Origin: Ignavibacteriales bacterium
Lineage (GTDB): Bacteria > Bacteroidota > Ignavibacteria > UBA10030
Direction: 5' to 3'
DNA length: 64,000 nucleotides
NCBI GenBank assembly: GCA_026390575.1
Contig: JAPLFR010000015.1
Location: 107,101-171,100 of the forward strand
The notes under the pieces were generated by a model, which worked only from the letters and a program-made list of their open reading frames with translations, was not told the origin of the DNA and did not search any database. Of this stretch, positions 45,390 to 48,419 are shown in pieces. Position 1 is the stretch's first letter. Each line of letters begins with the position of its first letter. A program made the translations under genes and the position numbers.

Positions 45390-45737
45390 ATGAAACGTGA
45401 TTATGTAAATGTATTCAAGGCGCTAAGCGACCCCAATCGAATTCGCATTGTGAAGATGCTCTGTAAGCGCGAACTGTGTATGTGTGAAGTACGGGAAATG
45501 CTTAATCTTTCCAATTCGACAGTCTCCCAACATCTGACAATTCTTAGAAACGCCGATCTTCTTTTGGATTCAAAGGAAGGGAAATGGGTGAACTTCCGAA
45601 TTAATGATAAATCTGATCGTAAATTTATTCGTTCTACCATCAATCTTATTAAAAATTCATTTGAAGACGACGACATAGTGCAGGCAGATCTAAAAAAGGT
45701 CTTTCGCGTCGATCGAATCAAAATAACAAAACTCTGA
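45390..45737 (+). CDS. arsR: ArsR/SmtB-family metalloregulator (copy 2)
   Basis: LSDPNRIRIVKML…ELCMCEV…LSNSTVSQHL HTH with CxC in helix alpha-3. Confidence 0.8.
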   Translation: MKRDYVNVFKALSDPNRIRIVKMLCKRELCMCEVREMLNLSNSTVSQHLTILRNADLLLDSKEGKWVNFRINDKSDRKFIRSTINLIKNSFEDDDIVQADLKKVFRVDRIKITKL

Positions 45738-45755
45738 ATCCCGAAAGGATTTGTT

Positions 45756-46001
45756 ATGAACATCAAGGTATTAGGTCCCGGTTGTATGAACTGTAAGACT
45801 CTAGAAAAACGAACCATCGAAGCTTTGCAGGAATTAAAAATGGATGCTGCTGTCGAAAAAGTAACGGATTATCAACAGATTGCTTCTTATGGCATTATGC
45901 GTACACCCGGTTTGGTAATCGATGAAAAAGTCGCAACTTCCGGATTTGTACCGACAGTGGAAAAAATTAAAGAACTTCTCCTTGCTCATCGGAGCGTATA
46001 A
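45756..46001 (+). CDS. Small thioredoxin-like protein (redox-active disulfide protein 2 type, CxxC)
   Basis: 81 aa, MNIKVLGPGCMNCKTLE…GIMRTPGLVIDEKV. Precedes the DUF318 permease. Confidence 0.75.
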   Translation: MNIKVLGPGCMNCKTLEKRTIEALQELKMDAAVEKVTDYQQIASYGIMRTPGLVIDEKVATSGFVPTVEKIKELLLAHRSV

Positions 46002-47026
46002 TGAATAAATTGTTTGAACGCAATACCATCAGCTTCACATTGGTCTTGTTAGCCGTATGGATTATTATCTATATGGCATTGCAGCCTCTTGCAGATGGAT
46101 TTATTTCTCTTATACGGTTGACTTCCGGTGAACACTTAACGGAATCTGTCCGGTTTTTCGTGTTTGAAGTGCCCAAAGTACTGCTCCTTTTGACTCTTAT
46201 CGTGTTCGCAGTCGGTATTGTGCGTACATATTTTTCTCCTGAACGCACACGCAAAATCCTCGAGGGGAAATCCCTTTTTACCGGAAATGTCCTTGCAAGT
46301 ATGCTCGGAATTGTCACACCGTTTTGTTCGTGTTCTGCAATTCCACTCTTCATCGGATTTGTAGAATCTGGTGTGCCTCTGGGAGTCACATTTTCATTTC
46401 TGATTGCTGCTCCTATGATTAACGAAATTGCTGTGGTATTGCTCTTTGGATTGTTCGGCTGGCAAACGGCATTATTATATGTGAGCACGGGATTGGTCAT
46501 AGCCATTACCGCCGGTTATGTGATCGGCCGCTTGAAAGTAGAACACTTGGTGGAAGATTGGGTGTATCAAATCCATTCGAATCCGAATGCGATTGAAGAA
46601 GCGAAATTAACATTTCGTGATAGGATTCAATTCGGATATGATGCGGTGAAGGACATTGTCGGGAAAGTCTGGCCGTACCTTCTCGTTGGTATCGGTGTCG
46701 GTGCCGGTATTCACGGATATGTACCGGAAAATTTTATGGCCGGACTCATGGGCAAATCAGCATGGTGGTCGGTTCCCATCGCTGTTATTATCGGTGTCCC
46801 GCTCTATTCCAATGCGGCAGGAATAATCCCCATCGTTCATGCCCTGCTCGAAAAAGGAGCATCACTTGGAACGACACTTGCATTTATGATGGCGGTTATC
46901 GGATTATCACTGCCGGAAACGATCATTCTCCGAAAAGTCCTCAAATTGAAACTGATCTCCATTTTTGTCGGTGTCGTGGCTGTCGGTATCATAATCGTAG
47001 GCTATCTCTTTAATATTGTGTACTAA
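46001..47026 (+). CDS. DUF318/COG0701 permease with TPFCSCS motif (ArsP-like putative organoarsenical/thiol-metal efflux permease)
   Basis: 341 aa and 8-10 TM with internal repeat. Motif GIVTPFCSCSAIPLF. Flanked on both sides by small CxxC thioredoxin-like genes. Confidence 0.8.
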   Translation: MNKLFERNTISFTLVLLAVWIIIYMALQPLADGFISLIRLTSGEHLTESVRFFVFEVPKVLLLLTLIVFAVGIVRTYFSPERTRKILEGKSLFTGNVLASMLGIVTPFCSCSAIPLFIGFVESGVPLGVTFSFLIAAPMINEIAVVLLFGLFGWQTALLYVSTGLVIAITAGYVIGRLKVEHLVEDWVYQIHSNPNAIEEAKLTFRDRIQFGYDAVKDIVGKVWPYLLVGIGVGAGIHGYVPENFMAGLMGKSAWWSVPIAVIIGVPLYSNAAGIIPIVHALLEKGASLGTTLAFMMAVIGLSLPETIILRKVLKLKLISIFVGVVAVGIIIVGYLFNIVY

Positions 47027-47040
47027 AAAATGGAGATGTT

Positions 47041-47274
47041 ATGAAAGTTCAAATTCTCGGGTCGAGCTGTACGAAGTGTAAAACGCTTGAAGAACGAGTT
47101 CGTCAATTAGTCGCAAAACATCAACTACCTATAGAAGTTGAAAAAGTGACCGATATTCAAGAGATGATAAAATTCGGGATTTTAGCAACTCCCGGTTTAG
47201 TGATCGATGGAGTATTGAAAAGTGTCGGATCTATACCTAAAGACACTCAACTTCTTGAATGGATGAAAGGATAG
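47041..47274 (+). CDS. Small thioredoxin-like protein (redox-active disulfide protein 2 type, second copy)
   Basis: 77 aa, MKVQILGSSCTKCKTLE…GILATPGLVIDG. Paralog of 45756-46001. Confidence 0.75.
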   Translation: MKVQILGSSCTKCKTLEERVRQLVAKHQLPIEVEKVTDIQEMIKFGILATPGLVIDGVLKSVGSIPKDTQLLEWMKG

Positions 47275-47279
47275 CATGT

Positions 47280-47717
47280 ATGAAGAAACAGATCATTGTA
47301 ACTCTCTTACTCAGTATTATGGTTTGCACATTTGCAATTGCTCAATCAAAGAAATCGATTAAACGAGCGAAGCCAGTGCCAGCTCTAAAAGATTCGAGCA
47401 AAATTGTTACAAAGCCTCTTGTTACATTTATCGAGCTTGGTTCTGTCAGATGCATTCCTTGCAAAGCTATGCAGCCTGTTATGAAATCCATCGAAGAAAA
47501 ATATGGAAGCCAGGTCAAGATAATTTTTTATGATGTCTGGCAGCAAGACCAATCGCATTTTGCACAGGTGTATAAGATCCGTTTGATACCCACACAGGTA
47601 TTTCTGGATTCCAAGGGCAATGAGCTTATGCGGCATGAAGGTTTTTTCCCGGAGAAGGACATTGATGCGTTCCTGCAATCGAAAGGTCTAAAACCTAAAT
47701 CTAACGATAAAGGATAA
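47280..47717 (+). CDS. Periplasmic thioredoxin-family protein (CIPC active site)
   Basis: Signal peptide MKKQIIVTLLLSIMVCTFAIAQS, then a thioredoxin fold with CIPC. The ORF extends upstream to 47259. Confidence 0.7.
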   Translation: MKKQIIVTLLLSIMVCTFAIAQSKKSIKRAKPVPALKDSSKIVTKPLVTFIELGSVRCIPCKAMQPVMKSIEEKYGSQVKIIFYDVWQQDQSHFAQVYKIRLIPTQVFLDSKGNELMRHEGFFPEKDIDAFLQSKGLKPKSNDKG

Positions 47718-47720
47718 TGT

Positions 47721-48419
47721 ATGGAATCTCTTTTCACATCGTTAACAGAAGCTCTCTATGGCAGTTATTCGCTTGCACTGCTTGCCTCTTTTGTCTGGGG
47801 AATCCTGAGCATCCTTCTTAGTCCTTGCCATCTTTCCAGCATCCCGCTCATTATCGGATTTCTTACAGCGCAAGGTGAAAAGAAAATGTCTCGCGGAATT
47901 CTTCTCTCGTTTATTTTCTCTCTTGGTATCTTTATCACCATTGCCGTCATAGGAATTATTACAGCAGCTTTGGGACGCATTATGGGCGATGTCGGTATCT
48001 ATGGCAAATGGTTTGTCGCAATAATCTTTTTTGTTGTCGGATTATATTTAATGGATATTATTCGCCTTCCCGACACAAATGTTGGATTGAGACCGATGGG
48101 AATTCGTTCTCCATTATTATCAGCATTAGTGCTTGGTCTGGTTTTCGGCATTGCTTTAGGGCCCTGCACATTTGCATATATGGCTCCGGTGCTCGGTGTT
48201 GTATTCCAACTTTCTACAACAAATACAATTGCAGCCGGTTTGCTTTTGCTTGCCTTCGGTGTGGGACATTGCGGGGTCATTGTTACTGCCGGTGGACTTG
48301 CTTCTCGCATTCAGTCGTATCTCGATTGGACGAATAAATCAAACACAGTTCTTTGGACAAAACGTGTTGCCGGTTTCCTTGTGGTGCTCGGAGGTATCTA
48401 TACATTATATTCTTCATAA
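47721..48419 (+). CDS. ccdA: Cytochrome c biogenesis / thiol-disulfide electron shuttle CcdA (DsbD transmembrane-domain family)
   Basis: 6-TM protein with the two conserved Cys in TM1 and TM4 (LLSPCHLSSIP, LGPCTFAYMAP). Confidence 0.85.
   Translation: MESLFTSLTEALYGSYSLALLASFVWGILSILLSPCHLSSIPLIIGFLTAQGEKKMSRGILLSFIFSLGIFITIAVIGIITAALGRIMGDVGIYGKWFVAIIFFVVGLYLMDIIRLPDTNVGLRPMGIRSPLLSALVLGLVFGIALGPCTFAYMAPVLGVVFQLSTTNTIAAGLLLLAFGVGHCGVIVTAGGLASRIQSYLDWTNKSNTVLWTKRVAGFLVVLGGIYTLYSS

Follow-up and report, generated by a model that had tools for sequence, protein, structure and literature searches.

Organization of the operon

The stretch of DNA analysed here, referred to as the window and used for all coordinates below, comprises 64,000 nt from an Ignavibacteriales bacterium (GCA_026390575.1, JAPLFR010000015.1, positions 107,101-171,100, forward) and carries an arsR-headed operon in which an ArsP_1 permease is encoded together with four thiol-motif proteins. 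On the plus strand, the open reading frames (ORFs) follow the order arsR, T3a, ArsP_1 permease, T3b, secreted thioredoxin (Trx), ccdA and an 85-aa gene, where T3a and T3b are mini-thioredoxins of the Thioredoxin_3 (T3) type. These seven genes form one compact operon, with junctions that range from a 1-nt overlap to a spacing of 18 nt, and the stop codon of T3a overlaps the start codon of the permease (TAATG). Upstream, 206 nt separate hgcB from the arsR of the operon, and downstream the gap from the 85-aa gene to the next arsR is 217 nt. A scan for intrinsic-terminator-like sites 3' of the 85-aa gene found none, and the end of the operon is placed by the 217-nt gap. Identical loci are present on several metagenome contigs, and an Ignavibacteriales metagenome-assembled genome encodes a protein with 100% identity to the permease.

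Gene families were assigned by Pfam and NCBIfam profile matches against curated cutoffs. All six genes listed in the initial annotation were found as ORFs on the plus strand at the positions given there, and their family identities held. Two features had been missed: the 85-aa gene at 48438-48695 and the hgcA-hgcB pair directly upstream. The gene neighbourhoods of permease homologs were surveyed using one genome per GTDB species, giving 80 loci with permeases 59-84% identical to that of the window. The loci cover at least 8 phyla, with members assigned to Ignavibacteriota, Bacteroidota, Desulfobacterota, Verrucomicrobiota, Planctomycetota, Bdellovibrionota, Aminicenantes, Chloroflexota, Armatimonadota and Pseudomonadota. 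Six-frame ORFs were annotated with hidden Markov models (HMMs) seeded from the window and the loci, and a gene was counted as a neighbour if it lay within 5 kb on the same strand.

The permease and its cysteine pair

The permease (46001-47026, plus strand, 341 aa) is a member of the ArsP_1 family (PF03773, former DUF318), matching with 263.3 bits against a cutoff of 32.3 and over profile positions 2-293 of 294. Its motif region, GIVTPFCSCSAIPLF, includes TPFCSCS, which contributes a CxC vicinal cysteine pair within a hydrophobic segment. C109 and C111 are both invariant in an alignment of 16 sequences (A1), and these are the only two conserved cysteines, so the Cys triad proposed earlier is reduced to a pair. 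The exact motif was found in 81 of 90 related permeases. An exhaustive search of the family returned 7,129 clusters at 50% identity (E <= 1e-3), and among 78 diverse near-full-length top representatives 58 carry TPFCSCS, with close variants in most of the others. The CSC core has been described as the most conserved feature between the SaoE and SO_0444 Cu/Zn efflux families, where selenocysteine variants also exist (10.1101/2022.07.06.499078). TPFCSCS had been taken as a hallmark of organoarsenical efflux; being family-wide and common to Cu/Zn efflux relatives, it is therefore not specific to organoarsenicals. The string itself gave no match in a full-text literature search.

The permease scored 135.4 bits with the SaoE model (cutoff 325) and 105.8 bits with that of SO_0444 (cutoff 300), its second-best NCBIfam match, thus falling short of membership in either group. 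No ArsP equivalog appeared among its NCBIfam matches, and a sequence search of the PDB found no solved relative of the permease or of CcdA.

Two mini-thioredoxins of separate lineages

T3a (45756-46001, plus strand, 81 aa) and T3b (47041-47274, plus strand, 77 aa) flank the permease and carry the motifs GPGCMNC and GSSCTKC, respectively. Both belong to the MTH895/ArsE family, whose members are ~75-80 aa long with an N-terminal GxxCxxC, as seen in matches to PF13192 (96.5 and 85 bits) and TIGR00412 (101.9 and 85.7 bits, cutoff 62), and T3a also matches the solved MTH895 structure (PDB 1ILO, E 8e-14). An N-terminal hydrophobic segment was found in 0 of 84 T3 family members, and the proteins are predicted to be cytoplasmic.

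The presence of mini-thioredoxins on both sides of the permease had been noted as an unusual duplication. The arrangement is indeed uncommon, occurring in 5 of the 80 species, of which two are Ignavibacteriota, two Bacteroidota and one a member of the Desulfobulbaceae, but it recurs with conserved positions and does not look like an odd duplication. T3a resembles most closely the upstream copies of other double loci (65-84% identity), the T3 of locus L021 (72%) and the ArsE-type T3 of loci encoding ArsF and ArsG (65% for L031). The nearest relatives of T3b are the downstream copies of double loci (51-72%), followed by T3 genes that precede Trx-CcdA elsewhere. A recent tandem duplication can be ruled out because T3a and T3b are only 38% identical and each is closer to its positional orthologs in other species. 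In a neighbour-joining tree of the T3 proteins, built on ~76 aligned positions, the deep branches are weak, and the nearest-neighbour identities are the firmer evidence. By these comparisons T3a and T3b are old paralogs, representing distinct lineages that track their modules, and the cassette gives the impression of two fused units, arsR-T3-permease and T3-Trx-CcdA. A different layout is seen in locus L089 (803-2670), where a 433-aa ArsP_1 protein, the longer form with an insertion (cf. Castillo and Saier), is followed by two tandem T3 and then by Trx, DsbD_TM, the 85-aa gene, arsC and acr3.

The secreted thioredoxin, CcdA and their ArsF-ArsG counterpart

T3b is followed by a secreted or anchored thioredoxin (47280-47717, plus strand, 145 aa, with an alternative ATG at 47259) that matches Thioredoxin_2 and Thioredoxin, and in which a signal-like segment, MKKQIIVTLLLSIMVCTFAIA, precedes the CIPC active site. 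Its homologs share these features: 38 of 41 have a hydrophobic stretch at the N-terminus, ahead of the CxxC, and 26 of 34 have CIPC. The next gene (47721-48419, plus strand) encodes a CcdA/DsbD-core membrane protein of 232 aa (PF02683, 35.4 bits against 27.1) with two transmembrane cysteines in SPCHL and GPCTF, and motifs of both types were found in 18 of 27 homologs. The DsbD_TM match, the two PC-motif cysteines and the adjacent secreted CxxC thioredoxin are together the signature of a CcdA/DsbD-core reductive relay.

Other loci of the survey encode ArsF and ArsG instead. ArsF is a CxxC protein with a signal-like N-terminus and ArsG a membrane protein of 230 aa with two cysteines, and they score above cutoff for NF040494 (ArsF) and NF040495 (ArsG, Pfam DsbD_2), respectively; all 25 of 25 ArsF proteins have the hydrophobic segment before the CxxC. 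The window proteins are not members of these families: the thioredoxin had no NF040494 match at E <= 0.01, and CcdA had no NF040495 match and belongs to PF02683 DsbD_TM. Profile-profile comparison nevertheless gave 94.8% probability over 63 columns for the secreted thioredoxin versus ArsF and 98.9% for CcdA versus ArsG, and shows Trx-CcdA and ArsF-ArsG to be distant homologs. Iterated CcdA and ArsG HMMs converge on each other, and the relay proteins were assigned to the CcdA or ArsG type by best score with non-iterated models.

Conservation of the gene neighbourhood

The partners of the permease are strongly conserved across the survey. T3 genes neighbour it in 72 of 80 loci and arsR in 69, and arsC was found in 30. 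A membrane relay of either type accompanies the permease in 46/80 loci, the secreted Trx and CcdA of the window type in 25 and ArsF and ArsG, in the same slot, in 21. No locus (0/80) encodes both types, and neither type ever occurs without T3. The same pattern holds for the 47 loci whose flanks both extend over at least 4 kb, of which 43 have T3, 33 a relay and 42 arsR; ten have T3 without a relay, four have neither, and a relay that lacks T3 is seen in none. Where a locus has just one T3, this gene in most cases directly heads the relay (T3-Trx-CcdA or T3-ArsF-ArsG).

Gene densities within 3 kb of the permease exceed those further out by ~30x for T3, ~29x for ArsF, ~74x for ArsG, ~8x for CcdA and ~11x for ArsR, and the association of permease, T3, arsR and relay is thus far beyond chance. 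The link of the homologs to arsR (69/80) and to a CcdA-type relay (46/80), on which the initial annotation had staked its proposal, is in other words present. Cultured carriers exist as well, for instance Cereibacter sphaeroides 2.4.1, where plasmid pDE encodes arsR-permease-thioredoxin. A cation-diffusion facilitator adjoins the cassette in locus L087 and in Citrobacter.

Proposed regulation by ArsR

The first gene of the operon (45390-45737, plus strand, 115 aa) encodes a repressor of the ArsR/SmtB family (HTH_5, 56 bits; NF033788, 88.5 bits, cutoff 55). Its stretch LCKRELCMCEV holds Cys25 and the ELCMCE site (Cys30 and Cys32), and the winged-helix HTH_5 domain with a Cys-x-Cys in the alpha-3 region marks it as a predicted As(III)-type repressor. 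The CxC site is present in 46 of the 65 ArsR proteins encoded upstream of the permease in related loci. In the ArsR of ArsF-ArsG-type cassettes, a vicinal CC(Y/T)SG stands where Trx-CcdA-type cassettes show CVC or CMC (L018, L020, L027, L028, L031, L037, L041, L063, L071, L075, L077 and other Bacteroidota loci), which hints at a different sensing site or ligand.

A promoter-like site at 45331-45359 (plus strand; TTGACA-17-TATATT with a TG extension) lies 31 nt upstream of arsR and is the best in the region, with 11/12 consensus matches, although it is a consensus match only, from a scan without the promoter type of this phylum. Its -10 element is overlapped by a perfect 10-nt inverted repeat, TATATTTCGT-N6-ACGAAATATA, at 45354-45379 (no strand), a candidate ArsR operator. 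A related inverted repeat, TATATTTG-N6-CAAATATA, precedes the next arsR at 48881-48902. The occurrence of kindred repeats before two arsR operons suggests that these may be subject to shared or cross regulation.

The 85-aa gene and the surrounding island

The last gene of the operon (48438-48695, plus strand) starts 18 nt after ccdA and encodes an 85-aa protein with the N-terminus MSKSCC, for which no family match was found in Pfam or NCBIfam. In its homologs (n=19), C5 and C6 are invariant. The gene is an accessory member of the cassette, because it recurs after the same arsR-T3-ArsP_1-T3-Trx-DsbD_TM arrangement on two unrelated contigs (L087 and L089).

The operon is the second of four arsR-headed units that make up a metal(loid) island located 3' of the ftsQAZ genes, with four arsR and two arsC of the low-molecular-weight protein tyrosine phosphatase type within ~17 kb. 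The first, apparently a single unit (41127-45183), comprises arsR, an S-adenosylmethionine methyltransferase gene (arsM-like), a TM1586-type nitroreductase gene (42379-43239), arsC, hgcA and hgcB. The studied operon follows from 45390, and the third unit (48913-53695) comprises arsR, CMD, a zinc ribbon gene, a 100-aa gene, two YlbF-like genes, a gene for a secreted 273-aa protein, FtsX and ABC. A classical arsR, arsD, arsA, arsC, acr3 unit (53721-57838) closes the island. Several proteins of the third unit are rich in terminal Cys-Cys, namely ArsR (...RGCCTTY), the zinc ribbon protein (...SSCCSGGNCC), the YlbF-like proteins (...RGCCG and ...PSCCG) and the 273-aa protein (...GGSCCGSKK).

Immediately upstream of the operon lie hgcA (43713-44876; NF040863, 415 bits against 275) and hgcB (44854-45183; NCBIfam equivalog, 106.5 bits against 99). 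The cap-helix motif of HgcA reads NVWCSAGK in the window and NVWCAAGK in two other HgcA proteins, and the N-terminus of the window protein carries MGCSDQKCGCG. In at least 6 of 80 hgcA loci from metagenomes, a DsbD_2-like membrane protein of ~233 aa, without PC motifs, is encoded on the same strand upstream of hgcA (L109, L115, L133, L135, L144 and L152; see also L125), directly abutting it in L115 and L135. Several of these proteins near hgcA display vicinal-Cys motifs such as FSCACN and SLCGLCCSP. L162 has a true ArsF-ArsG pair directly upstream of hgcA, and in L111 T3-ArsF is found next to arsC-hgcA.

Proposed function and alternative explanations

On balance, we lean towards the view that the operon is repressed by ArsR and serves to export a trivalent metalloid that binds thiols, the most probable candidates being methylarsenite, an aromatic arsenite and arsenite. 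The island provides an arsenic context for this, with its arsM-like gene, two arsC, arsD, arsA, acr3 and four arsR-headed operons. In the model that we propose, ArsR would bind the metalloid via Cys25 and Cys30-x-Cys32 and be released from the putative operator overlapping the -10 element. ArsP_1 may then bind its substrate by the membrane-embedded TPFCSCS Cys pair and move it out of the cell. T3a, translationally coupled to the permease, would act at the cytoplasmic face, either keeping the Cys pair reduced or handing over the thiol-bound substrate. T3b, CcdA and the secreted CIPC thioredoxin would constitute a self-contained, DsbD-like relay bringing reducing equivalents out of the cytoplasm into the periplasm, where it may keep outward-facing permease thiols, or other periplasmic and envelope thiols, reduced or metalloid-free during expulsion. 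We infer the substrate, the direction of transport and the order in which the partners reduce one another. The initial annotation had read the operon as coupling both cytoplasmic and periplasmic thiol reductant supply to a Cys-pair permease, which is a fair reading of its anatomy. It had further suggested redox cycling of the permease cysteines; by the comparative data, a role for T3 as the cytoplasmic head of the CcdA relay is favoured at least as strongly.

The T3b-Trx-CcdA relay may also be a functional counterpart, and not only a distant homolog, of ArsE-ArsF-ArsG. The two pairs, ArsF-ArsG and Trx-CcdA, look like interchangeable relays for one permease subfamily, which questions the name of ArsG as an efflux permease. 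More specifically, and as a tentative proposal only, they may be two exchangeable forms of a single transmembrane reductant relay dedicated to ArsP_1, with an MTH895/ArsE mini-thioredoxin at its head. If this were true, ArsG would be an electron conduit and not the efflux permease that its name implies, the real exporter of ArsEFG-type systems would be the neighbouring ArsP_1 permease, and reducing power would be required on the membrane's outer face for the export of thiol-binding arsenicals (or, in methylators, possibly of methylmercury).

Several observations weigh against the proposed export function. The periplasmic target of the relay is a guess. The AlphaFold2 model of the permease, computed from alignment A1 (homologs >=73% identity), has a pLDDT of 47.8 and a pTM of 0.31 and cannot place the Cys pair, and the CSC motif is found in Cu/Zn efflux relatives too. 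The likeness to ArsP of Campylobacter jejuni (TC 2.A.119), consisting of PF03773 and the ars-operon context, is a comparison at the family level, and a functional difference between two arsP clades is considered possible in PMC6205960, where Yang et al. 2015 is cited for it. The published (NCBIfam) names of ArsEFG imply nitroreductase subunits and an efflux permease rather than a relay, and PGAP names the cultured homologs only 'permease' and 'thioredoxin family protein'.

These ArsEFG names lead to one alternative, in which the thioredoxin-like proteins T3b and Trx would reduce the nitro group of roxarsone or nitarsone and the DsbD-like CcdA would be the efflux permease, with ArsP_1 as a parallel exporter. 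Such a system would be in keeping with the placement of T3 in the MTH895/ArsE family, with the remote homology of the window Trx and CcdA to ArsF and ArsG, and with the TM1586-type nitroreductase gene of the neighbouring operon (42379-43239). Moreover, the same slot is occupied in 21/80 loci by proteins named 'nitrophenyl compound nitroreductase subunit ArsF' (NF040494) and 'aromatic aminobenzylarsenical efflux permease ArsG' (NF040495). We nevertheless judge it unlikely, as the window Trx and CcdA match neither the ArsF nor the ArsG model and instead show what is classical for reductive DsbD relays, CxPC in the one and two PC-Cys in the other. The combination of a secreted thioredoxin fold bearing CxxC and a DsbD core of six transmembrane helices and two cysteines is the architecture of an electron conduit, not of a transporter.

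An explanation of comparably low probability is that the relay is a stress-induced back-up for envelope thiols, for example the CxxCH of apocytochrome c, and is co-regulated with the permease without direct interaction. CcdA together with a secreted CxPC thioredoxin is indeed the canonical reductant pathway of cytochrome c maturation. The permease-T3 pair also occurs without a relay, both in 10 of the 47 full-flank loci and in cultured bacteria, and the permease therefore does not need the relay. A general back-up function does not fit well with the enrichment of the relay at the permease (8x for CcdA and 74x for ArsG), and the occurrence of two non-orthologous relay types in the same slot speaks for a role connected with the permease or with its substrate.

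It is quite improbable that the permease is a Cu/Zn/Cd soft-metal exporter like SO_0444, with the thioredoxins as metal chaperones. SO_0444 is the second-best NCBIfam match and shares the CSC motif, and a cation-diffusion facilitator is found beside the cassette in L087 and Citrobacter, but the SO_0444 score of 105.8 bits is far from the cutoff of 300. ArsC is encoded within 5 kb in 30/80 loci, the island of the window is arsenic-specific (arsM-like, arsC, arsD, arsA, acr3), and a homolog in strain ND132 is induced by arsenic (10.1101/2022.10.17.512643).

Less probable still, if only slightly, is export of methylmercury (MeHg) or Hg(II) from the adjacent HgcAB, with the Cys pair and the thiol proteins as Hg ligands. 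To our knowledge, no MeHg exporter is known, and such a role would be consistent with the start of the operon 206 nt after hgcB. In two other lineages, hgcAB adjoins permease-T3 (L060, Paludibacter; L081, Deltaproteobacteria), and a scan of the 80 hgcA metagenome loci, made as a test of the mercury reading, found the permease in 3/80. MeHg export has also been reported to be coupled to Hg uptake (PMC7438021). The linkage is, however, limited to these 3/80 hgcA loci and, besides the window, 2/80 permease loci, the location of hgcAB among ars genes is already documented in general (PMC7438021), and the great majority of cassette-bearing genomes show no nearby hgcAB.

Export of a trivalent metalloid thus remains our favoured function for the operon. 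The cassette is widespread (at least 8 phyla) in anaerobes that drive arsenic and mercury cycling, and its parts are annotated only generically. If the relay is needed for the export of thiol-binding metalloids, an extra step would have to be added to textbook arsenic resistance, and this would also suggest that the ArsEFG proteins have been assigned the wrong roles.

Comparison with known systems

ArsP of C. jejuni exports MAs(III) (methylarsenite) and Rox(III) (trivalent roxarsone), but not As(III) or pentavalent forms, a selectivity known for no other ArsP (PMC6205960). According to reviews, its gene lies beside arsR, arsC and acr3 and has no thioredoxin partners (PMC6205960), in contrast to the permease described here. 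The DsbD/CcdA pathways, with partners such as ResA, CcmG or TlpA, share with the window relay a core of six helices with two cysteines in PC motifs, a CxPC thioredoxin that is secreted and a cytoplasmic thioredoxin as donor. In the window, however, the operon itself apparently encodes a dedicated donor, the 77-aa protein of MTH895 type, and the whole relay is placed under ArsR and linked with a metalloid permease instead of genes for cytochrome c maturation. With respect to the permease itself, two vicinal cysteines in a membrane segment have reportedly been found in the C. jejuni protein too, a finding ascribed to Chen et al. in 2015.

A close parallel in a mercury methylator is operon C of Pseudodesulfovibrio mercurii ND132 (arsR5-arsP-arsE-DGC-like), whose transcription is induced by As(III) and As(V) (10.1101/2022.10.17.512643). 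It likewise encodes an ArsR, an ArsP-family permease and a PF13192 thioredoxin-like protein, but has a single T3, encodes neither CcdA nor a secreted Trx, and does not adjoin hgcAB. ArsEFG of Shewanella putrefaciens resembles the T3b-Trx-CcdA part in combining a cytoplasmic mini-thioredoxin, a secreted CxxC protein and a two-Cys membrane protein of the DsbD superfamily, and this type adjoins the same permease subfamily in 21/80 loci. T3a and T3b are true ArsE-family members, whereas the window Trx (PF00085/PF13098) and CcdA (PF02683, not DsbD_2) show only remote homology to ArsF and ArsG.

The closest precedent is the gene set described by Castillo and Saier in 2010 (PMC2963123, section 3.9), who found 61 arsP genes in ars operons and the present gene combination in 8 instances from 7 organisms. 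Within arsR-headed operons, their set likewise combines an ArsP permease with an MTH895-type 'redox-active disulfide protein 2', CcdA and a thioredoxin, and among the relevant papers returned by our literature search it is the only one to consider ArsP together with CcdA. The three redox proteins were proposed to feed ArsC, with ArsP left without a function (PMC2963123), and the account makes no mention of the thioredoxin being secreted, of the paralogous T3 pair, of the 85-aa protein with its Cys-Cys or of ArsF-ArsG as the other form of the relay. The gene combination is accordingly already known, and the cassette of the window is a typical, slightly fuller member of a biochemically uncharacterized, ars-associated set. 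Taken alone, the window is thus a modest result, an instance of the set noted in 2010 that stands directly beside mercury-methylation genes.

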